A DNA stretch of 64,000 nucleotides from an uncultured Chloroflexia bacterium (GCA_963712745.1 CAVQJC010000006.1:341133-405132); one strand, 5' to 3'; counted from the first letter of the stretch, positions 48,322 through 56,603 are shown. Numbers and translations: made by a program. The notes: generated from the letters alone by a model not told the origin.

Positions 48322-48633
48322 CTACTCCTTCATCGACGTGTACTCGTCCACGAGCGGCGTCCTGCGGTTGCGGTAGATGGCGATGACGATGGCCAGGCCG
48401 ACCGTGGCCTCACCGGCCGCCAGCGCGATGATGAACAGCGCGATCGTGCTGGCCTGCGCGGCGAACTCGGGCGTGAAGGCCCCGAAGGCGATGATGGCCA
48501 GGTTGACCGCGTTGAGCATCAGCTCGATGGACATGAGCATGGCGATGGCATTGCGGCGGGCCAGGAAGCCGAACGTGCCGATGCCGAAGAGCAGCACCGA
48601 CAGGATGAGGTAGGCCTCGAGCGACTGGCTCAT
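48322..48633 (-). CDS. nuoK: NADH-quinone oxidoreductase subunit K
   Basis: RRNAIAMLMSIELMLNAVN, AAGEATVGLA. Confidence 0.97.
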   Translation of the reverse strand: MSQSLEAYLILSVLLFGIGTFGFLARRNAIAMLMSIELMLNAVNLAIIAFGAFTPEFAAQASTIALFIIALAAGEATVGLAIVIAIYRNRRTPLVDEYTSMKE

Positions 48634-49211
48634 GCCTTGCTCTCTTCGTCGCGCATGGCCGTGCGCGGGTTGTTGGTCTCGGGCATGTCGTCGTCGCGCT
48701 TGGCCAGGTAGAGCCCGCCGATGACGCCGGCCAGCAGCAGCACACCCAGGGCCAGGAACGCGAGCATGTAGTCGTTGAACAGGGTCAAGGCGATGTCACG
48801 GGCCTCGGCTACCTGTACCTGCGCAGTCGCGTCCCATTCGGTCAGCAGGATGGTCGTGGCCATGAGCAGCACGAGCACCATGGCAGCCAGTGCCCCGGCC
48901 CACCATTGACGGTTGAAGACGAGCCTGGCGGGACCACGCTTGGACTGCGTGATCATGACCGCGAAGAGGATGAGCACCGCGATCGCGCCCACGTACACCA
49001 GTACCTGGCTGATGGCCATGAAGGCGCTGCCGAGCAGGCCGTAGATGCCGGCCAGAGCGGCGAATGACAGGATGAGCCAGAGCGCCGAGCGGATGATGTC
49101 CCGCCCCAGCACGACGAGCAGCGCCGAGCCCAGCATCACGCCGGCCAGCAGCAGGAAGATCAGGTCATCCCAGCGCCAGTCGAGATACGGGACCGTCCCC
49201 GGTAGCTCCAC
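48630..49211 (-). CDS. nuoJ: NADH-quinone oxidoreductase subunit J
   Basis: QVLVYVGAIAVLILFAVM. Confidence 0.95.
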   Translation of the reverse strand: MELPGTVPYLDWRWDDLIFLLLAGVMLGSALLVVLGRDIIRSALWLILSFAALAGIYGLLGSAFMAISQVLVYVGAIAVLILFAVMITQSKRGPARLVFNRQWWAGALAAMVLVLLMATTILLTEWDATAQVQVAEARDIALTLFNDYMLAFLALGVLLLAGVIGGLYLAKRDDDMPETNNPRTAMRDEESKA

Positions 49212-49232: not shown

Positions 49233-51836
49233 CTACTTGTGGTGGACCGATGCTCCGCCACCCGCGGATGCTCCGGCGGTGGTGTCGTTGGAGCCGCTTA
49301 CCGTGCTGCGGCTCCCCTGGCCGTTGCCCGCCAGTCCCGGCGGCAGCATGGGCAGCAGCTGCTCGCTCGGGATGTCACGGCCGTCGGCCTGAGCCCGGGC
49401 CAGCCAGTCGCGCTCGCGGCGGACGTAGCTGAGCTCGGTGTCGCGATCCATGTCGGCCAGCGCGATGAGGTCGATCTGCGGCTCCGAGCGCGACTCATGG
49501 GCCAGTTCGAAGTCGGGCCCACAGCGCAGCGCGTCGTAGGGGCAGGCATCGACGCAGATGCCGCAGAGGATGCAGCGCGACTCGTCGACCTCGTACTTCT
49601 CCAGCACGCGCGGCTTGGGCATGAGCGCGCCGGTGGGGCACGTCTCGGCGCAGCGGCCACAGGAGACGCAGGGCGTGGTGTTCAGGCTCATGTCCAGCGG
49701 CGTCGTCACCAGCGTGTCGAAGCCGGTGCGCATGAAGTCGTAGCAGGCTGCGCCCACGACCTCACGGCAGACGTTGGCACAGCGGCCGCAGTCGATGCAG
49801 CGCGAGGGCTCGCGCAGGATGAAGGCGTGGCTGTCGTCGCGGATGTAGTCGTGGTTGTAACCCGTGAAGCGGTTCTCGTTCACCGAGCGCACCGACAGGC
49901 CCGTGCGCTTGGGCTGCAGCGTGGAGAGCGTGGTGCCGTACTCGATGCCCTGGCGGCGCAGGTCGCAGTAGCCGATGGCTTCACAGGTGCACTGCAGGCA
50001 GCGCGCCGATTCGGCCATGGCTTCTTCCTGCGTGTAGGGGATCTCGTACTCGATGTAGGAGTCGTTGCGCTCCTCGGCCGGCATGGCCTTGAGCCGGATC
50101 CGAGGCTCCTTGACCTCTCCGGTGTAGGGCACGATGGAGAGGAACTCGGGCTGCGGCTCGGCCAGCGTCTGGCGGGTCCGGATCTCGTCGAGGTCCTGGC
50201 CCTGGAGGTAGGCGTCGATGGCGTAGCTGGCGCGCCGACCCTCGGCGATGGCCTCCACCACGGTGGCCGCGCCGGTGCGCACGTCGCCGGCCCCGAACAC
50301 ACCCTTGCGCCCGGTGCCGAAGGTGACCGCGTCAGCGTCCAGCCGCCAGCGCTTGGTCTTCTCGACGCCGTCCGCTCCGTTTTCAAGCCAGCCCATCTCC
50401 GGGCCCTGGCCGATGGCCAGCAGCACCCGGTCGCAGTCGATGATGAACTCGGTGCCCTCCACCGGCTGTGGCCGGCGGCGGCCCGAGGCGTCCGGCTCAC
50501 CCAGCGCCATGCGCTGGAACTCCACACCGGTGACCTTGTTGTCCTCCCCGGTGACGATGCGAGTCGGTGACGCCTGGAAGATGGCGCGGGCGCCCTCCTC
50601 GAGCATCTCGTGGACCTCGTCGGCCGCAGGCATGTCCTTCATGTCGCGGCGGTAGACCAGCGTGGTCTCGGTGCAGCCCTGCCGCACCGACGTGCGCGAG
50701 CAGTCCATGGAGCTGAAGCCGCCACCGATGACCACCACGCGCGTGCCCTTGTGGCCGGGGTAGGGCAGACCCAGCGTGGCCACGCGCAGGTACTCGAGCG
50801 CATCGATGACGCCGTCCGCGTCCTCGCCGGGGATGCCCAGCTTGTTCGTGTCGTAGCAGCCGATGGCCACGAGGACCGCGTCGAAGCCTTCGTTCTGGAG
50901 ATCGTCGATGGTGAAGTCCACGCCCAGCTCCGCACCGCTGACGAGCCTGGCGCCGAGGCTCCACACCGCCTCGTACTCGGCTTCGAGCACCTCTGCCTTG
51001 GGCAGGCGGTACTGGGGGATGCCGTAGCGGAGCATGCCGCCCGGCTCAGGGTCGCGTTCGTAGACGGTCACGGCGTGGCCGTTGAGCGAGAGGTAGTAGG
51101 CCGCCGACATGCCGGCCGGGCCGGAGCCGATGACGGCCACGCGCTTGCCGGTAGCGGGCTGCTGGTCGAAGGGCAGCGGCGGCTTGGCGCCGGCCGCCTG
51201 GGCCTTGAGCACCTGGTCGCCTGCGTAGCGGTGGCTGTCGCGGATGGCGATGGCCTCCTCCACCTCGTCACGGCGGCAGTGCTCCTCGCAGGGTGCTGGG
51301 CAGACTCGGCCGAGCACTGACGGGAACGGGATGGTGCGCTTGAACACGCGCGCCGACTCCACGAAGTCGCCCTCGGTGTTGGCCTTGAGGAAGCCCGGGA
51401 TGTCGATGTGGCTGGGGCACTTGTTCTGGCAGGGCGGCAGGCAGTAGGCGTTGTGGTCCGAGAAGATGAGCTCGAGGTTCGTCTTGCGGATCTCCCGCAG
51501 CCGCGGCGTTTGCGTACGCACGACCATGCCCTCTTCCGCCTCGCGCGAGCAGGAGATGGGTGGTGCGTCCTCGCCCTCGACCTCGACCACGCACATGCGG
51601 CAGGCACCGAAGCCGGGCAGCTTGGGCTCGTAGCAGAGGGTGGGCACCTCGATGCCCTGGTCGCGGCAGACGTCGAGGATGGTCTGGCCGGCGCGGCCGG
51701 TGTACTGCTTCCCGTCGATCTCGATAGTGAACTCGGGCGCAGCCAGACGGCGCTGTGGCGACTGGGTCGCGAGCAGGCGCTCGGTGGCTTCGTCGACGGC
51801 GGGCTGGCTGCTGGTCTGGGGCAGGGTGTCGGTCAT
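49233..51836 (-). CDS. Fusion: NuoG-like 2Fe-2S N-domain + GltD/NfnB-like FAD/NAD(P)H domain + 2[4Fe-4S] ferredoxin + C-terminal half of NuoI
   Basis: PTLC..GACRMC..ISC; PPCQNKCP, GRVCPAPCEEHC, IGSGPAG, GGMLRYGIP, IGGGFSSMD, VYRR; CIDCGRCANVC, CVSCGRCAETCP; KYEVDESRCILCGICVDACPYDAL..PDFELA. Confidence 0.9.
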   Translation of the reverse strand: MTDTLPQTSSQPAVDEATERLLATQSPQRRLAAPEFTIEIDGKQYTGRAGQTILDVCRDQGIEVPTLCYEPKLPGFGACRMCVVEVEGEDAPPISCSREAEEGMVVRTQTPRLREIRKTNLELIFSDHNAYCLPPCQNKCPSHIDIPGFLKANTEGDFVESARVFKRTIPFPSVLGRVCPAPCEEHCRRDEVEEAIAIRDSHRYAGDQVLKAQAAGAKPPLPFDQQPATGKRVAVIGSGPAGMSAAYYLSLNGHAVTVYERDPEPGGMLRYGIPQYRLPKAEVLEAEYEAVWSLGARLVSGAELGVDFTIDDLQNEGFDAVLVAIGCYDTNKLGIPGEDADGVIDALEYLRVATLGLPYPGHKGTRVVVIGGGFSSMDCSRTSVRQGCTETTLVYRRDMKDMPAADEVHEMLEEGARAIFQASPTRIVTGEDNKVTGVEFQRMALGEPDASGRRRPQPVEGTEFIIDCDRVLLAIGQGPEMGWLENGADGVEKTKRWRLDADAVTFGTGRKGVFGAGDVRTGAATVVEAIAEGRRASYAIDAYLQGQDLDEIRTRQTLAEPQPEFLSIVPYTGEVKEPRIRLKAMPAEERNDSYIEYEIPYTQEEAMAESARCLQCTCEAIGYCDLRRQGIEYGTTLSTLQPKRTGLSVRSVNENRFTGYNHDYIRDDSHAFILREPSRCIDCGRCANVCREVVGAACYDFMRTGFDTLVTTPLDMSLNTTPCVSCGRCAETCPTGALMPKPRVLEKYEVDESRCILCGICVDACPYDALRCGPDFELAHESRSEPQIDLIALADMDRDTELSYVRRERDWLARAQADGRDIPSEQLLPMLPPGLAGNGQGSRSTVSGSNDTTAGASAGGGASVHHK

Positions 51837-53155
51837 GAGCGCACGGCACCTGCTAGTCGGATGGGTTGGCAGACCCCGGCAGGGCATTCACCCCGCTCGG
51901 TGTGGGCTTCGAACTCAGGCGCGAAGTATCGCATTCCCGACAGCAGCGGGTTCGAGGCGTCGGCCTCCAGGCCGCACAGCGCCGCGTCGCGGATGTCCGC
52001 CGCGAGGTCCCCCAGCAGCTGCGAGTCGCCGGGGCGCACGTGCCCGCTGCAGTAGGCGTTGCCCAGCTCGGCCAGGCGGCGCGTACCGATGCGGCAGGGG
52101 ATGGTCTTGCCGCAGGCGTTGTCGTTGAGGTATCGCGCCATGAGCGTGGCCACGTCCACCAGGCAGGCCGTCTCGTCGAGTGCCAGCAGCGTGCCTGAGC
52201 CGGCCAGCGCACCGGCCTCCCGCAAGGCGCCGAAGGTCAGGGGCGTGTCGAGCGCGTCGGGTGGCAGGAAGCCCCCGGTGGGTCCGCCGACCAGCACGGC
52301 TTTCAGCGCACCCTGCGCGGAGCCACCGCCGCCGTCGAGGATCTCACGCACCGTGGCGCCCGTGGGCACTTCCACGATGCCCGGCTTGCGGACCACGCCA
52401 CCGAGCTGCACCAGGGTCGTGCCGGGGGCCTCCGGGTCGCCCAGCGAAGCGTAGGCGCCGGCGCCGTGACTGACGATCCAGGGCACGGCCGCCAGCGTCT
52501 TGACGTTGTTGACGACCGTGGGCTTGCCCCACAGGCCTGCGCGGGATGGATAGGGCGGGCGCTGGTCGGGCTGGGCCCGGCGGTTCTCGAGCGCTCGCAA
52601 CAGCACCGTCTCCTCGCCTACCACGAAGGAGCCGCTGACCTCGCGCACCTCGATCTCGAGGTTGCGCCCGTCCTCGGTGCTGCCCAGGTAGCCGCGCTCA
52701 GAAGCCTCGTCGACGGCCGTGCGCAGGCGCTCGGCGGCGTCGGGCGCCGTGGCCGAGACGGCGATGATGGCCGACTCCGCGCCGACTGCCCAGGCCGCGA
52801 TGGCCGTGCCTTCCACGACCGCGTGCGGGTCACGCTCCATGAGCGTGCGGTCAAGCTGTGCGCCGGGGTCGGCCTCGAAGCCGTTGGCCACCACGTAGCG
52901 CACCGGCTCTGGCTGGGCGGCGCAGTCGCGCCACTTGGCGCCGGCCGGGTAGCCGGCGCCACCCCGGCCCCGCAAGCCAGACTCGCTGATCATGCTGATG
53001 ACCGCGTCGGGGCTGAGCTCGGCGGTGGCCTTGCGGAAGGCCTCCCAGGCCCCGCCCTTCTCGGCCTCGGCGACGTCGGCGACCGCGGAGTCGGCGGCAC
53101 GTGCCAGCAGCACGGATGGCCAGTCGCGCGAGCCGCTCAGGACGGGCAGGCTCAT
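51833..53155 (-). CDS. nuoF: NuoF/HydB-like flavoprotein subunit, divergent
   Basis: SGLRGRGGAGYP, DPHAVVEG, GEET, PTVVNNVKT, VGGPTGG, CGKTIPCRIG, LCGL, CPAGVC. Confidence 0.85.
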   Translation of the reverse strand: MSLPVLSGSRDWPSVLLARAADSAVADVAEAEKGGAWEAFRKATAELSPDAVISMISESGLRGRGGAGYPAGAKWRDCAAQPEPVRYVVANGFEADPGAQLDRTLMERDPHAVVEGTAIAAWAVGAESAIIAVSATAPDAAERLRTAVDEASERGYLGSTEDGRNLEIEVREVSGSFVVGEETVLLRALENRRAQPDQRPPYPSRAGLWGKPTVVNNVKTLAAVPWIVSHGAGAYASLGDPEAPGTTLVQLGGVVRKPGIVEVPTGATVREILDGGGGSAQGALKAVLVGGPTGGFLPPDALDTPLTFGALREAGALAGSGTLLALDETACLVDVATLMARYLNDNACGKTIPCRIGTRRLAELGNAYCSGHVRPGDSQLLGDLAADIRDAALCGLEADASNPLLSGMRYFAPEFEAHTERGECPAGVCQPIRLAGAVRS

Positions 53156-53991
53156 GCCGCCTCCCCCTGGGGCACGCTCGCACGCAGCGCAGCGGCGATG
53201 GTGGCCGCGTCCTCCGCGCTCGACTTGGGCAGGGGCTCGCCGTCGACCTCGACGTAGGCACTGCCGGACGAGGTGCCACCGCACTCGGTGGTGTCGAGGC
53301 GGACCGCCCCGTCAGGGCTGACGCCGCCGATGTCAGTGCCGAGGTGCTCGCGGAACGCGGCCAGGACGCGCCCGCCACCCAGCAGCGTGCACTGCGTGCA
53401 GCGGCAGACACGCACGATGTGGCCGACCGGCGGCTCGAAGTGCAGGTGCGGGTAGGACGTGGCCACGCCGTAGAGCTCGCTGTAGTTGGCCCCCGTCTGG
53501 TGGGCGATATGCTGCAGCGCCGCCACCGGCAGGTGCCCGTACGCACCCTGGGTCTGCTCCAGGATGGCCAGCGCCCGCCTGGGCTTGTAGCCCTCCGCTG
53601 CGAGGATCTCGTCGAGCGGGCCGAGGTCGATGGGCTCGAACGGATCGAACATGCGGTCGGGCACGCTGCGGCCGGAACGCCGCAAGGCCGACTCTTCTCG
53701 CCGCTCGGCGTACTGCTCCGCGGCGCCCCAATGGACGTGGTAGCGGTCGCGTGTGTCGACACCGCCCATGTCGATGCATTCGATGGGGCAGGCCTGGGCG
53801 CACTGGAAACAGGTCTCGCACTTGAGCGTGCCGGCCTCGTCGTAGAGCAGGATGAGCCGGCCCCGGTGACGCGGAGAGATGTCGTTGACGACCTCGGGGT
53901 AGCGCACCGTGAGGTTGGGGCGGAAGACCTGCCGGACGGCGAAGACGATGCCCTTGACGATGGCCAGGCCGGGGATCCGCTCGGTCCTCAC
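53152..53991 (-). CDS. Fusion: N-terminal half of NuoI + NuoE-like domain
   Basis: TVRYPE...PRHRGR...KCETCFQCAQACPIECI (NuoI-N), then LEQTQGAYGHLP, YGVATSY, VRVCRCTQC, ECGG (NuoE); GTG overlaps the nuoH stop. Confidence 0.88.
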   Translation of the reverse strand: MRTERIPGLAIVKGIVFAVRQVFRPNLTVRYPEVVNDISPRHRGRLILLYDEAGTLKCETCFQCAQACPIECIDMGGVDTRDRYHVHWGAAEQYAERREESALRRSGRSVPDRMFDPFEPIDLGPLDEILAAEGYKPRRALAILEQTQGAYGHLPVAALQHIAHQTGANYSELYGVATSYPHLHFEPPVGHIVRVCRCTQCTLLGGGRVLAAFREHLGTDIGGVSPDGAVRLDTTECGGTSSGSAYVEVDGEPLPKSSAEDAATIAAALRASVPQGEAA

Positions 53992-55382
53992 GAGAGATAC
54001 TCCGTGATGATGATGATGGCGCCGGCGGTGACGAAGATGTTCAGCAGGGCGGCCGGCATCAGCCACTTCCAGGCGAAGTTCATCATCTGATCGATCCGTA
54101 CGCGCGGGTATGTCGCGCGCATCAGCACGAACAGCGCGACCAGGGCGAACGACTTGCCGAAGAACCAGAGGATGCCCATGAGGGCCTCGAAGCTGAGCAG
54201 GGCCCAGAGGCTGACCAGCGCGCCTACCAGGAGGTTGGCCAGCAGGAAGCCCACCAGCAGCGACTTGATGACGCCCCACGAGGACTTGACCATCCAGACC
54301 AGGCCTGCCAGTGCCAGCGTCAGGATGGGCGGCACCAGCAGCGGGATGGCGATGAGCCACGGGCCCAGCGAGCCCGGTTCGATGTTGCTCATCTCGACCG
54401 GCGTGTCGATGCCGATGGCACTGAGGAACGGGTCCACGTCGATGATGCCGTGGTAGCCCCCCAGGAAGAGCGTCACCGTCAGCGCCGAGAGGATGAAGAC
54501 GTTGACGTACTCGGCGAAGAAGAAGAAGCCGAAGCGCATGCCGCTGTACTCGGTGGCGAAGCCGGCCACCAGCTCGGAATCGGCCTCGGTGTAGTCGAAG
54601 GGGGTGCGGCCGGCCTCGGCGGTGGCGGCGATGAAGAAGATGATCAGCGCCAGCGGCTGCTGCCAGGCATACCAGTTCCAGATGCCGCCGCCCTGGTTCT
54701 CCACGATCTGGCCCAGGTTGAGGGTGCCGGCCAGTAGGACCACGCCGAAGGTGCCCAGGATGAGCGGCAGCTCGTAGCTGATGACCGCGGCCGCGGCGCG
54801 GATGCCGCCCAGCAGCGAGTACTTGTTGAAGCTGGACCAGCCGGCCATCATCAGGCCCACCACGCCCAGGCCCGAGGCCGCGAAGAAGTAGAGCAGCCCG
54901 AGCTCCATCTGGTAGCCGATCATGCCCGGGGCGAAGGGGATGACCAGCAGCGTCAGGACCGAGGCCAGGAAGGTCACCGCGGGGGCCAGGGTGAAGACCG
55001 GTACGTCCACGCCTCTTGGCGTGTAGTCCTCCTTGGAAAGCACCTTCAGCCCCGCCATCAGCGAGGCCAGCGTGCCCCACGGGCCGGTGCGGTCCGGCCC
55101 CACGCGCAGGTTCATCTGCGCGATGATCTTGAGCTCCATGTAGATGATCACGAACGCCGCGGGGACCGTGAACAGGAGCACGCCGGTGGCAGCCGCGACG
55201 AAGCGCAGGATCTCGATGTTGGCCTCGCCGGTGTCGATGACCCAGTCGGTGACGGTGCTGCCGATGCCGGTCACCCACAGGAGGGTGGCACCCAGCATGG
55301 CCACCAGGATGATGGCTACCAGCGGCAGGATGATCTTGCCCGCGAGCGACAGGCGGTTCCAGGGGTTGCTCGCTGCGGTCAC
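53988..55382 (-). CDS. nuoH: NADH-quinone oxidoreductase subunit H (extended, 464 aa)
   Basis: RVGPDRTGP, NKYSLLGG, ISYE, AEAGRTPFD..EADSELVAG..EYSG, RATYPRVRIDQ. Confidence 0.96.
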   Translation of the reverse strand: MTAASNPWNRLSLAGKIILPLVAIILVAMLGATLLWVTGIGSTVTDWVIDTGEANIEILRFVAAATGVLLFTVPAAFVIIYMELKIIAQMNLRVGPDRTGPWGTLASLMAGLKVLSKEDYTPRGVDVPVFTLAPAVTFLASVLTLLVIPFAPGMIGYQMELGLLYFFAASGLGVVGLMMAGWSSFNKYSLLGGIRAAAAVISYELPLILGTFGVVLLAGTLNLGQIVENQGGGIWNWYAWQQPLALIIFFIAATAEAGRTPFDYTEADSELVAGFATEYSGMRFGFFFFAEYVNVFILSALTVTLFLGGYHGIIDVDPFLSAIGIDTPVEMSNIEPGSLGPWLIAIPLLVPPILTLALAGLVWMVKSSWGVIKSLLVGFLLANLLVGALVSLWALLSFEALMGILWFFGKSFALVALFVLMRATYPRVRIDQMMNFAWKWLMPAALLNIFVTAGAIIIITEYLS

Positions 55383-56603
55383 TTGTCGATCCCGCCCATG
55401 ATGGGATCCAGGCTGGCCATGATGGCCATGAGGTCGGCCAGCACCTGACCCTGCGACAGCGGCGTGACCGCCTGCAGGTTGAAGAACGAGGGGTCGTGGA
55501 TGCGGAAGCGGAAGGGCTGGTCGGAGCCGTCGCTCACGGCATAGGCGGCGTACTGCCCGCGCGGGGACTCGAGCGCCGCGAAGGCCCGGCCCGGCGGGAT
55601 GCGCAGTAGCCGCGGCAGCTTGGCCATGACCGGCCCGTCGGGCATCTGGTGCAGGACCTGGTCGATGATGCGCAGCGACTGCTTGATCTCGTCGATGTGA
55701 AGCAGATAGCGTGCGTAGGAATCGCCATCGGTTCGCACCGGGATGTCGAAGTCCAGCTCCGGATAGACGCTGTAGGGATGGGCCCGACGCACGTCATAGG
55801 GCACGCCCGTGGCCCGCAACGGTGGTCCCGACATGCTCAGGCGCAGGGCCATGTCGCGGTCGACCACGCCCAGTCCCTTGGTCCGGTTGACGAAGATCTC
55901 GTTCTCGTTCATGAGCGTGGCCTGGTCGTTGATGCGGGCGGCGGCGCGGCCCATCCAATCGCCCAGGCGGCTCAGGAATTCGTGGTTGAGGTCACCGTTC
56001 ACGCCGCCGATGCGCATGTAGTTGAAGAGCAGCTTCTGGCCTGTCAGCGCCGCCAGCATCTCCACGATCTCGTCGCGTTCGCCGAAGCCGTAGAGGATGG
56101 GCGTGAGGCCGCCCAGGTCTAGCGCGAGCCAGCCGATGAAGAGGGCGTGACTGGAGATGCGGTTCAGCTCCCAGGCCAGCACGCGGATGTACTCGGCCCG
56201 CCGCGGCACCTCCAGCTCGAGCAGCTTCTCCGCGGTCAGCACCGGCAACGACTCGCTGAACATGGAGGCGGCGTACTCGAGTGGGTCGGTGTTGCTGATG
56301 GCGTGATGCCAGTCGCCGTGCTCGCAGATCTTCTCCACCCCGCGGTGGAGGTAGCCCAGCACCGGATCGAGGTCGACGATCGCTCTCGCCGTCGATCTTG
56401 AGCACGACACGCAGCACGCCGTGCGTAGATGGATGCTGCGGCCCGAGGTTGATGAACATCTCGCCGTCATCGAGCTGGTAGAACTCGGCCTCGCGCTCGG
56501 TGCGCGGGGTCAGCGGCGGGATGGCGTCGTAGATGGTGGCGGGCGTCTGGACCATGACGTCCGGATCGTCCAGCGAGCGGACCTGTTCGCGGTCGGTCGT
56601 CAT
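55379..56603 (-). CDS. nuoD: NADH-quinone oxidoreductase subunit D, apparent frameshift near 56385
   Basis: N part [14 protein letters not shown]; after the shift [17 protein letters not shown]...ESPRG...DPIMGGIDK. Confidence 0.93.

Follow-up and report, generated by a model that had tools for sequence, protein, structure and literature searches.

Bfu enzymes are built around a 'flavobicluster' of B1, FMN and C1, and their B2 zinc is liganded by three cysteines and one histidine (PMC11829005). N- and C-terminal cluster domains define the bifurcating BfuB subunits (PMC9304861). In Geobacter and others, a Bfu-related module lies in the middle of a nuo gene cluster ('Nuo-Bfu') and has been proposed to feed quinone; its BfuB keeps all bifurcation clusters, and a confurcating input of NADH and ferredoxin has been put forward for it (PMC9304861). 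Here we analyse a 64,000-nucleotide stretch of DNA from a soil bacterium (the window), in which three Bfu-related genes are embedded in a nuo operon.

The E'-F'-G' module and its operon

The genes concerned are the following.

53988..55382, minus strand: nuoH, the upstream neighbour
53152..53991, minus strand: IE protein, 279 aa; NuoI N-terminal half, conserved linker and NuoE-like domain (E', residues 127-269)
51833..53155, minus strand: F', 440 aa; NuoF/BfuB-core flavoprotein without the extra cluster domains
49233..51836, minus strand: G', within an 884-aa ORF from 51887; likely start M18 at 51836
49476..49610, minus strand: NuoI C-terminal half in G' (residues 760-804; C772/C775/C778/C782-P)
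48630..49211, minus strand: nuoJ, the downstream neighbour, followed by nuoK, nuoL and nuoM

Translation and start inspection show 4-nt start-stop overlaps: GTGA joins the IE start to the stop of nuoH, and ATGA joins the F' start to the stop of IE and the likely M18 start of G' to the stop of F'. The order nuoD-H-IE-F'-G'-J-K-L is kept in every one of the 80 genome loci that is long enough to show it. F' and E' homologues and their loci belong to the Chloroflexota class Limnocylindria. The IE fusion is matched in 543 species genomes, and 32 genomes match IE over residues ~5-190 only. NuoH is single copy in the genome (84.55% complete), and nuoD carries one assembly indel error, an extra base at 56382/56383. 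Canonical complex I places the NuoE and NuoF genes between nuoD and nuoH, whereas the IE-F'-G' genes lie between the two halves of nuoI.

The N-terminal half of NuoI in IE holds one CxxCxxCxxxCP motif (C58/C61/C64/C68). Positions 1-66 of TIGR01971 correspond to IE residues 14-80 and positions 71-115 are found in G', so that the halves abut. Each half scores 45.5 bits (cut-off 113.05) and these are the best NuoI matches of the genome, in which a TIGR01971 search detected no intact NuoI. The two CxxCxxCxxxCP motifs expected on one NuoI polypeptide are here divided between two, and PDB NuoI chains are matched by IE over their first halves and by G' over their second halves.

G' (numbered on the 884-aa ORF) comprises an N-terminal [2Fe-2S] domain, a two-cluster GltD domain and FAD/NADPH Rossmann folds, followed by a C-x2-C-x-C-x5-C group, a 2x[4Fe-4S] NuoG-like domain and the NuoI C-terminal half. 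Residues 55-781 align to residues 6-698 of 9bov_A (NfnA); the alignment stops at residue 698 of 1178, where the NuoI half comes next, and the formate-dehydrogenase-like C-terminal domain of the Stn/Nfn large subunit is missing. All G' cluster cysteines are kept in 29/29 sequences and the GltD motifs are likewise invariant. The GltD domain is a second, predicted NADPH-type flavin entry.

The sole Pfam domains of F' are Complex1_51K, a weak SLBB and NADH_4Fe-4S, and this search returned neither a Fer4/ferredoxin nor an N-terminal thioredoxin-like domain. F' scores 346.7 bits against the nuoF_fam equivalog TIGR01959, under its cut-off of 558.65. Its best PDB matches are 9bov_B, 8oh5_B, 7q4w_B and 9n5u_B (E 1e-115 to 1e-109), the top nine are all Bfu-type B subunits, and residues 27-432 align to 117-526 of 9bov_B (584 aa). 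The AF2 model of F' has a pLDDT of 92.1 and a pTM of 0.91. E' matches PF01257 over residues 127-269 with 86.3 bits (gathering score 24.8), scores 61.9 against the NuoE profile TIGR01958, below the equivalog cut-off of 142.4, and finds HydC/StnA/NfnC in the PDB. All three proteins best match the same solved entries, 9bov (NfnABC), 8oh5 (StnABC) and 9n5u. As judged from this homology and synteny, nuoI is interrupted by E'-F'-G', a cassette of the Stn/NfnABC (Bfu) type. The cassette may well amount to a three-gene NAD(P)H module with E' and F' as its BfuC/BfuB-type core (StnA/StnB, NfnC/NfnB), and the host operon is plausibly an otherwise 11-subunit-type complex I.

Cofactor motifs and the N3 site

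The following motifs were located in F' and E'.

52862..52885, minus strand: F' N91-G-F93-E-A-D96-P-G98 (canonical NADE[GS][DE]PG)
52607..52627, minus strand: F' F177-V-V179-G-E-E-T183 (canonical [YF][IV]CGEET)
52094..52114, minus strand: F' N3/B1 motif C348-G-K-T351-I-P-C354
51965..51976, minus strand: F' fourth N3 ligand C394 with Glu397 (C-G-L-E)
51869..51904, minus strand: F' H418-x5-C424-x4-C429, a C-terminal motif of the HydB/NfnB type, in the region of the Bfu 'B2' Zn site
53389..53406, minus strand: E' first group C196-R-C198-T-Q-C201 (canonical C-x4-C with an extra Cys198)
53269..53283, minus strand: E' second group C237-G-G-T-S241 (canonical C-x3-C minus its second Cys)

A preliminary description of this DNA had reported these departures, and translation bears it out: CGKTIPC occupies exactly 52094-52114, NGFEADPG and FVVGEET are present in F', and CRCTQC and CGGTS in E'. 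Translation and Pfam likewise agree with its statement that F' keeps a HydB-like tail (H418...C424-P-A-G-V-C429) and is missing the extra ferredoxin domains. It had also considered bifurcation unlikely, a view that we share because F' lacks the N- and C-terminal cluster domains defining bifurcating BfuB. Orthologue alignment and dN/dS, which it had suggested as a check, found the substitutions conserved.

Our homologue sets comprised 120 F' and 120 IE proteins (121 with the query), 80 genome loci and 74 orthologues/species. VANGFEADPG occurs in 111/121 F' sequences and CGK[TS][IL]PC in 108/121, the remaining 13 being unmatched by the pattern; the unusual F' and E' motifs recur in the 80 loci. 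The tail residues H418, C424 and C429 are kept in 71, 70 and 70 of the 74 orthologues, respectively. F' is under purifying selection: dN/dS (NG86, 13 loci, 12 for nuoD) is 0.27 for F' (range 0.21-0.35), which exceeds IE (0.17), G' (0.17) and nuoD (0.14) but is not above nuoH (0.30). Among the five compared, F' is the least conserved (identity 53-82% vs 74-89% for G'). Fixed throughout the lineage, the substitutions have the look of exchanged ligands and not of decay.

An assembly artefact or pseudogene, for which the nearby nuoD indel could speak, is refuted by the recurrence in 120+120 homologues and 80 loci, the intact frames with coupled 4-nt overlaps and the dN/dS of 0.27. Contigs of four other public runs carry identical N3 and E' cysteine motifs, and the same genome encodes two canonical paralogues, reading ICNADEGDPGAF and ESCG[KL]C..PC.

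The four-Cys N3 pattern CxxCxxC...C is replaced in F' by C348-x2-T351-x2-C354...C394. Position 351 is T in 57, C in 11 and S in 6 of the 74 orthologues, and C348, C354 and C394 are retained in 72. Three residues past the fourth ligand C394, Glu397 gives way to Gly when Cys351 is present: in a 116-row tree, all 81 rows without Cys351 (T 63, S 12, A 6) have E397 and all 35 rows with Cys351 have G397. An unbiased column scan found that 2/440 columns, 392 and 397, split the two groups. Four changes are needed on the tree for each trait, and three independent pairs on starred branches are all concordant (sign test p = 0.25). Residues 395-398 form a short helix immediately past C394 in the AF2 model. 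We infer cofactor occupancy and cluster type from these patterns. Cys351 has most likely been replaced as fourth N3 ligand by the candidate Glu397, and the co-variation suggests a Cys3Glu-ligated [4Fe-4S] cluster, with a [3Fe-4S] cluster as second choice. That Gly-to-Glu changes track Cys loss at each origin points to selection for a working cluster.

The second of these assignments, in which C348, C354 and C394 carry [3Fe-4S] while Glu397 does no more than tune or cap the vacant corner, is possible, although we lean against it; the potential of the branch's cluster would then differ and probably be higher. This assignment concerns the cluster and not the role of F', and its probability overlaps with that of the preferred reading given below. 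A missing second Cys in CxxCxxC is the classical signature of such clusters and T, S and A swap freely at position 351, but the 81/81 versus 35/35 co-variation is most simply explained by a replacement ligand, and IspG holds a Glu-ligated [4Fe-4S] cluster. The second Cys is also replaced in CXX?XXC(X)nCP ferredoxins, as it is by Thr, Ser or Ala in F'; with Thr, Ser, His, Asn or others at the ? site, which tunes the potential, all those examined are [3Fe-4S] proteins, spanning -340 to +230 mV (PMC6237146). These have a fold unlike the NuoF four-helix bundle of F', their description in PMC6237146 contains no counterpart of the distal Gly-to-Glu change co-varying with Cys loss, and the same source provides a precedent for an Asp-ligated [4Fe-4S] cluster in Pyrococcus furiosus ferredoxin.

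The flavin pocket, E' and the electron path

Conservation in F' is far higher in the FMN/NADH pocket than elsewhere. Sixteen flavin/nucleotide positions of the pocket are fixed in 74/74 orthologues (G63, G65, G66, K74, W75, N91, D96, P97, G180, E181, E182, T183, R199, P200, P201 and T220); for comparison, the top residue has a mean frequency of 0.705. The NuoF-type Gly-rich loop GLRGRGGAGYPAGAKW, GEET and VNNVKT are all found. The nearest solved relatives, HydB/StnB/NfnB, read NADEGDPG and FVCGEET, from which F' differs only by A to G, D to F, G to A and C to V, fewer changes than from the complex I consensus used in the preliminary description. Position 93 is F in 54, Y in 17, M in 2 and V in 1 of the 74 orthologues; at this Nqo1-D94 site, Asp is present in 0/102 ingroup rows and 13/14 outgroup rows, and presumably contacts FMN. 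Position 179 is V in 46, L in 20, H in 3, M in 2, T in 2 and S in 1, and never Cys.

The HydB active-site model used Asp201, Phe284, Asn324 and the backbone of 286-289 (PMC10021017), all of which map to kept F' positions by PDB-alignment offsets. Nucleotide-specific sites are unchanged or conservatively substituted in the 74 orthologues, among them E182, K74 and Y69/Y202, with roles at the adenosine ribose for E182 and in adenine stacking for Y69/Y202 (PMC11677225). These alignments are consistent with a pocket that could well be intact save for second-shell changes, D to F at the Nqo1-D94 position and C to V.

In E', the canonical C-x4-C...C-x3-C set is reduced to C196-x4-C201 and C237, with Ser at 241. 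C196, C198, C201 and C237 are invariant in 121/121 proteins and 80/80 loci. Position 241 is S in 107, A in 13 and T in 1 of the 121 proteins and varies among S/N/A/G/P/T/H in the 80 loci, where Cys never occurs. A 3+1 Cys pattern is normal in plant-type [2Fe-2S] proteins (PMC11138216), and it is a plausible reading that the E' site has likewise changed from 2+2 to 3+1 (C196, C198, C201 and C237).

Further losses occur in relatives. At loci L019 and L021 (2/74 species, among the nearest relatives), C348, C354 and C394 are S, D and S while F' is otherwise intact, which indicates a value of F' independent of the N3 cluster. The E' cluster domain is missing in the 9 loci of sister lineage f1 and the 5 of f3 that were examined; in f4 and f2 the distal Cys of E' is absent and the first Cys group retained, and in f3 and f4 the NNV asparagines are altered as well. 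The E' and F' cofactors are thus predicted to be dispensable in some relatives.

These losses bear on whether E' and F' are vestiges of a Bfu core kept mainly for G' folding or docking, their FMN and clusters structural or idle, with NADPH-FAD (GltD) to split NuoI as the sole electron entry. We regard this main rival as rather doubtful. Across the class, the Fe-S ligands of E' and F' are labile against 29/29 for the G' cluster cysteines, N3 is wholly lost in two species that retain F', the E' thioredoxin-like domain has been lost in at least two lineages, F' diverges fastest as a protein and Asp is absent from the Nqo1-D94 position throughout the ingroup. A pure scaffold, however, would have no need of the nucleotide-specific positions E182, K74 and Y69/Y202, Gly-to-Glu accompanies Cys loss at each origin, and F' dN/dS does not exceed that of nuoH. 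The preliminary description had proposed such a scaffold with GltD entry: the invariant GltD motifs and the dispensability in relatives speak for it, the 74/74 pocket and the kept E' and F' cysteines against it. Of its suggestion that the NADH site is dead or retuned, a dead site is not supported in this genome: the pocket is kept in 74/74, F' is under purifying selection, N3 cysteines persist in 72/74, Glu co-varies and E' keeps four cysteines. Retuning fits better than loss.

With NAD(H) and FMN bound, F' might instead regulate an NADPH-to-quinone path as its redox sensor or gate; it would be a leftover of the NAD-triggered Bfu switch and not a substrate site. NAD binding at the FMN of NfnABC/Stn triggers conformational changes in the B/C core (PMC11829005, PMC10482914), and the pocket is conserved even in species without N3; we nevertheless consider a sensor very improbable, as the retention of three cluster ligands and the Glu in 72/74 species can be explained without it.

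Our preferred reading, itself finely balanced, is a de-bifurcated, retuned NADH branch beside the NADPH-FAD (GltD) input. We infer substrate use and flow direction as follows. The F' FMN would exchange hydride with NAD(H) and release electrons one at a time, by way of the retuned cluster, to the [2Fe-2S] of G'; the invariant G' wire would carry them to the reassembled NuoI clusters, N2 and quinone. NADPH electrons would take the same path from the G' FAD. E' would act as an N1a-like side store, dispensable in relatives, and the module would not bifurcate.

By alignment, the three altered sites coincide exactly with the flavobicluster members, and the ferredoxin-side domains are gone. It is conceivable, but unlikely, that the remodelled B1-FMN-C1 triad, more than a plain inlet, serves as a working redox gate in a complex that descends from a bifurcating transhydrogenase and is bound to the membrane, with a cluster that is naturally Cys3Glu-ligated through a swap that arose several times. 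NADH, NADPH and quinone/pmf would then be connected by a single machine, which might carry out pmf-assisted quinol-to-NADP+ reduction or proton-pumping-coupled NADPH/NAD+ exchange, for example.

Comparison with described systems

F' and E' resemble Bfu enzymes more closely than complex I, and their best matches are NfnB/StnB/HydB and NfnC/StnA/HydC (9bov/9bp5, 8oh5, 7q4v/7q4w, 9n5u). F' has the core fold of Bfu B subunits, their H...CPAGVC tail and an acidic motif of the D type (NADEGD), where complex I has the NADESE type; the gene order E-F-GltD/NuoG is common to Stn/NfnABC. F' differs from bifurcating BfuB in lacking the 2x[4Fe-4S] ferredoxin domain at the C-terminus (B3, B4) and the thioredoxin-like domain at the N-terminus (B5 site), in its putative three-Cys-plus-Glu397 B1 site and in the Phe that replaces the Asp preceding the conserved Glu of NADEGD. 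The E' ligands differ from C1 in their 3+1 pattern. Unlike in Bfu enzymes, E' shares a polypeptide with the first half of NuoI, and the module is linked to a proton pump of the membrane.

Canonical NuoF/Nqo1 and NuoE/Nqo2 (2fug, 6hl2, 7awt) have Pfam domains identical to those of F' and E'. F' shares with NuoF/Nqo1 the Gly-rich loop, GEET, K/R-PP-aromatic and NNV motifs and the nuo operon setting, and the side-branch role of E' is probably like that of cluster N1a; F' lacks the second Cys of N3 and E' its fourth Cys.

F' is without the ferredoxin domain that defines BfuB in the 'Nuo-Bfu' study, whose passages on that module mention neither a GltD domain (the term 'GltD' does not appear in it) nor a split NuoI (PMC9304861). 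R. eutropha HoxF is an Nqo2-Nqo1 fusion lacking N1a (PMC3189943). It belongs to a soluble hydrogenase module and shows that a NuoF-type diaphorase can work with a NuoE-like part devoid of [2Fe-2S], as in the sister lineages of this module; the E' analysed here keeps four cysteines.

Gene order and the split NuoI

The complex I genes on the minus strand of the window are ordered nuoA-B-C-D-H, IE, F', G', nuoJ-K-L-M, where IE is a fusion of the first half of NuoI with a NuoE-like domain (E'), F' is NuoF-like and G' is a composite protein carrying a GltD unit.

53152-53991, minus strand: IE, 279 residues; its start lies in GTGA, overlapping the stop codon of nuoH
51833-53155, minus strand: F', 440 residues; its start lies in an ATGA overlap
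51836 (likely start), minus strand: G'; its start lies in an ATGA overlap

The first part of IE corresponds to the NuoI first half, with one CxxCxxCxxxCP motif (TIGR01971 positions 1-66); residues 127-269 form a thioredoxin-fold domain of the NuoE type (PF01257). F' is a NuoF-type flavoprotein comprising the Complex1_51K, SLBB and NADH_4Fe-4S domains only. G' combines a NuoG-type [2Fe-2S] domain, a complete GltD-type two-cluster/FAD/NADPH unit and further clusters, and ends in the NuoI second half (TIGR01971 positions 71-115). No intact NuoI was found in the genome of the window, a 4.2-Mb assembly that is 84.55% complete and encodes a single NuoH; nothing in it matches NuoI better than these two halves, at 45.5 bits each. 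For IE, F' and G' alike, the best solved relatives come from 9bov/9bp5 (C. saccharolyticus NfnABC), 8oh5 (S. ovata StnABC) and 9n5u; E'-F'-G' is thus a cassette of the Stn/Nfn-Bfu type (Bfu, the HydB/StnB/NfnB-type bifurcating enzymes) inserted in nuoI.

The 4-nt start/stop overlaps at nuoH/IE (GTGA, 53988-53991), IE/F' (ATGA, 53152-53155) and F'/G' (ATGA, 51833-51836) fit translational coupling, and the G' open reading frame reaches 17 codons upstream of its likely start, M18. The residue after the NuoI motif of IE (CPIEC; residue 72, 53776-53778) is a fifth Cys in 55 of the 80 closest loci but Ile or Val in the remaining 25; it is thus not a conserved ligand. Many G' orthologues (L035, L047, L052, L054, L063, L068, L070, L073, L078 and others) carry long Gly/Asn/His-rich C-terminal repeats (GNGH..., HAHAR), for which a metal-binding role is possible; the tail in the window is shorter (...ASVHHK). 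Contigs of X17, a run filed as metatranscriptomic, match stretches of F', G', nuoH and nuoD without a mismatch (51939-52135, 52642-52867, 55313-55507 and 56324-56528 in F', nuoH and nuoD); this hints at expression but may reflect DNA carry-over and is thus not counted as evidence of transcription. The nuoD gene occupies two frames on the minus strand (55992-56603 and 55379-56470) through one extra base at 56382-56384. This base is absent from the related locus L017, and contigs of four public runs have one base fewer at 56382/56383 and otherwise match nuoD exactly; the split is an assembly error, not a pseudogene.

Cofactor sites of F' and E'

The altered motifs listed in the preliminary description (CGKTIPC, NGFEADPG and FVVGEET in F'; CRCTQC and CGGTS in E') are all present where it had placed them, and they recur in homologues that might instead have proved canonical. 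VANGFEADPG occurs in 111 of 121 F' sequences (the window and 120 homologues at 68-84% identity) and CGK[TS][IL]PC in 108, the other 13 having no match to the pattern; E' C196, C198, C201 and C237 are invariant in 121/121 sequences (the window and 120 IE homologues at 73-93% identity), with position 241 being Ser in 107, Ala in 13 and Thr in one, and these protein sets and the genome loci may overlap, so that the counts are not independent. Four other public runs yielded contigs that agree letter for letter at the N3 motif and at both cysteine groups of E'. The altered residues are thus not sequence errors. Against the nearest relatives of F', HydB, StnB and NfnB, which have NADEGDPG and FVCGEET, the flavin-site differences reduce to A->G, D->F, G->A and C->V.

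The same genome also encodes two NuoF paralogues in which the motifs are canonical. These NuoF/BfuB-type loci (L001, C11:349781-353296; L002, C20:546881-550396; open frames of 705 and 554 residues) retain NADEGDPG, CxxCxxC and the CPAGVC tail. A fourth PF01512 match lies at C6:36422-36916.

Pairwise NG86 dN/dS between the window and 13 close loci (12 for nuoD) points to purifying selection on F' (0.27, range 0.21-0.35), next to 0.17 for IE, 0.17 for G', 0.14 for nuoD and 0.30 for nuoH; since these GC-rich genes have a dS of only 0.3-0.8, the values are a ranking and not absolute. The top F' values belong to two species (L019, L021) in which all three remaining N3 ligands are replaced (S, D, S), the only such cases among 74 F' orthologues.

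At the second N3 position (351), these 74 orthologues have Thr (57), Ser (6) or Cys (11). A quick IQ-TREE phylogeny of F' (116 rows, LG+G4, rooted on 14 canonical representatives; 102-row ingroup, SH-aLRT 98%) requires at least four changes here. Four cysteines are the outgroup state, which persists in family f3, in the L111/P0243 pair of rows and in the CSP1-4 clade. Family f4 acquired Ala in a single event, and the main clade has Thr or Ser with flips between the two. The cluster-less pair is nested in the six-row clade of the window itself (97%). In an unbiased scan of all 440 F' columns, only 392 and 397 separate rows with Cys351 from rows without it. Position 397, three residues past the fourth ligand C394, is Glu in 81/81 rows lacking Cys351 and Gly in 35/35 rows having it; the independent pairs on supported branches agree in 3/3 cases, a number at which p = 0.25 and significance is out of reach. 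The AF2 model of F' (pLDDT 92.1) has a short helix, residues 395-398, directly behind C394; this would place Glu397, the candidate replacement for Cys351, on the same side as C394. PMC6237146 reports a [3Fe-4S] cluster in every examined ferredoxin in which Thr, Ser or another residue occupies this position of the motif, and such a cluster at N3 is therefore kept as an alternative; we have downgraded it, in its plain form, because of the co-variation of Glu397.

The flavin/NADH pocket is more conserved than the rest of F': 16 positions (G63, G65, G66, K74, W75, N91, D96, P97, G180, E181, E182, T183, R199, P200, P201 and T220) are invariant in 74/74 orthologues, against a whole-protein mean of 0.705. 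The adenine-stacking positions are aromatic or His throughout (Y/F/H69, Y/F/H/W202), and the residue before GEET is Cys in 0/74. For Nqo1 we have assumed, in part, the numbers K202, F205, N219 and N220. The position of Nqo1 D94, an Asp that presumably contacts FMN, is Phe in 54 orthologues, Tyr in 17, Met in two and Val in one. Roles were assigned to pocket positions from PMC11677225 (section 2.2) and from parts of PMC7171172 and PMC10021017 (a HydB active-site model). The passages used from PMC6560083, PMC11677225, PMC3189943, PMC7171172 and PMC10021017 make no statement on the role of the Asp at Nqo1 D94, and the Asp replaced by Phe in F' is absent from the HydB model as described there (PMC10021017). 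By ungapped alignment offset, F' D96 and E94 correspond to StnB D186 and E184 (StnB after part of PMC10482914).

The four invariant cysteines of E' follow a C-x-C-x2-C...x35...C pattern, a 3+1 layout; plant-type [2Fe-2S] ferredoxins have three cysteines on one loop and one distal (motifs in PMC11138216). Position 241 varies among S, N, A, G, P, T and H across the 80 closest loci, so serine ligation is not conserved. Ligand swapping is reportedly on record for the archetypal thioredoxin-like ferredoxin.

Distribution and lineage variation

A genome scan found the IE fusion in 543 species-representative genomes. The best 80 of these 543 all come from uncultured Chloroflexota, many named Candidatus Limnocylindria or Limnocylindrales with CSP1-4 among them, save one labelled Dormiibacterota (L085), an exception that could stem from binning or labelling or be a true occurrence outside Chloroflexota. 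Every sufficiently long locus among the best 80 has the order nuoD-nuoH-IE-F'-G'-nuoJ-K-L. As these loci are the closest relatives, a wider sample of 201 genomes of the class was drawn, including four unpublished ones (G087, G096, G123, G159); the IE query matched 131 of the 201, by family 59/60 in f1, 7/7 in f2, 64/66 in f4 and 0/66 in f3. Despite the lack of matches to this query, the two NuoI halves lie ~4.1 kb apart in 5/5 f3 genomes examined. In the f1 genera lacking the E' cluster domain, 32 genomes of this draw match IE over residues ~5-190 only.

Ligand variation at E' and at the N3 site of F' in families f1-f4 of Limnocylindria
Lineage; loci; E'; N3
Several f1 genera; 9; thioredoxin-like cluster domain absent; CGK[ST]
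f3; 5; thioredoxin-like cluster domain absent; four Cys
f4; 5; CxCxxC retained, distal Cys lost; CGKA
f2; 1; CxCxxC retained, distal Cys lost; CGKT

In contrast to these ligands, the cluster cysteines of G' are all invariant (29/29). The F' NNV motif reads SSAET, ASAET or GCAET in f3 (L117-L121), where K-M/L/I replaces the K-W that follows the Gly-rich loop, and HNAET, QNAET, QNGET or HNGET in f4 (L103-L108); the flavin site of both families is further from the canon, although the f3 N3 site still has four cysteines. F' lacks the C-terminal H...CPAGVC, the Bfu B2 Zn-site region, at ten loci (L094-L097, L100, L109; L036, L040, L041, L045), perhaps through frameshifts or through a true truncation.

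Proposed retuned branch and comparison with bifurcating enzymes

The cofactors assigned here to E', F' and G' are those predicted from sequence. G' would form an invariant trunk conveying electrons from NADPH through FAD and a cluster wire to NuoI, with F'/E' as a retuned NADH branch. The preliminary description had left the NADH site as dead or retuned and cast E/F as a scaffold, with electron entry through GltD. We favour the retuned half of this proposal and give a working branch about even chances; a scaffold is unlikely, and the pruning of the F'/E' branch in relatives is counted as real evidence in its favour.

Few known redox sites are as conserved as the NADH site of complex I, with its triad of FMN, N3 and N1a. 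In Bfu enzymes this triad was recently defined, under the name 'flavobicluster' (B1-FMN-C1), as the minimal site for bifurcation (PMC11829005). A class of bacteria abundant in soil and fresh water offers a natural variant series, all built on the same conserved scaffold and connected to a proton pump, with four-Cys, Cys3+Glu and cluster-less N3 sites, and with 2+2, 3+1 and three-Cys ligand sets or no cluster domain in E'. Such a series makes directly testable what each member of the triad contributes, how bifurcation is turned off and whether complex I can use NADPH. Annotations of such proteins as 'NuoE' or 'NuoF' should not be taken to mean canonical subunits. Searches of the main texts of open-access papers turned up neither this E'/F' variant nor the split-NuoI complex.

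B1 (N3), FMN and C1 (the E' cluster) are the sites that have changed, and together they are exactly the flavobicluster. True BfuB proteins all carry ferredoxin-side domains (as described in part of PMC9304861), whereas F' has none, which bears out the earlier view that bifurcation is unlikely. The NfnABC path, FAD-A7-A6-A3-A2-A1-B1-FMN, has a side branch that dead-ends in a formate-dehydrogenase-like domain (PMC11829005); in place of this domain, G' has the NuoI second half. Together, the altered flavobicluster, the missing ferredoxin-side domains and the NuoI half argue for a non-bifurcating enzyme, and the whole complex reads as a putative two-flavin NAD(P)H:quinone oxidoreductase. Related arrangements are the Nuo-Bfu operons (described in part of PMC9304861) and the Mbx-like operons in which GltD takes the place of NuoI (from part of PMC4758237).
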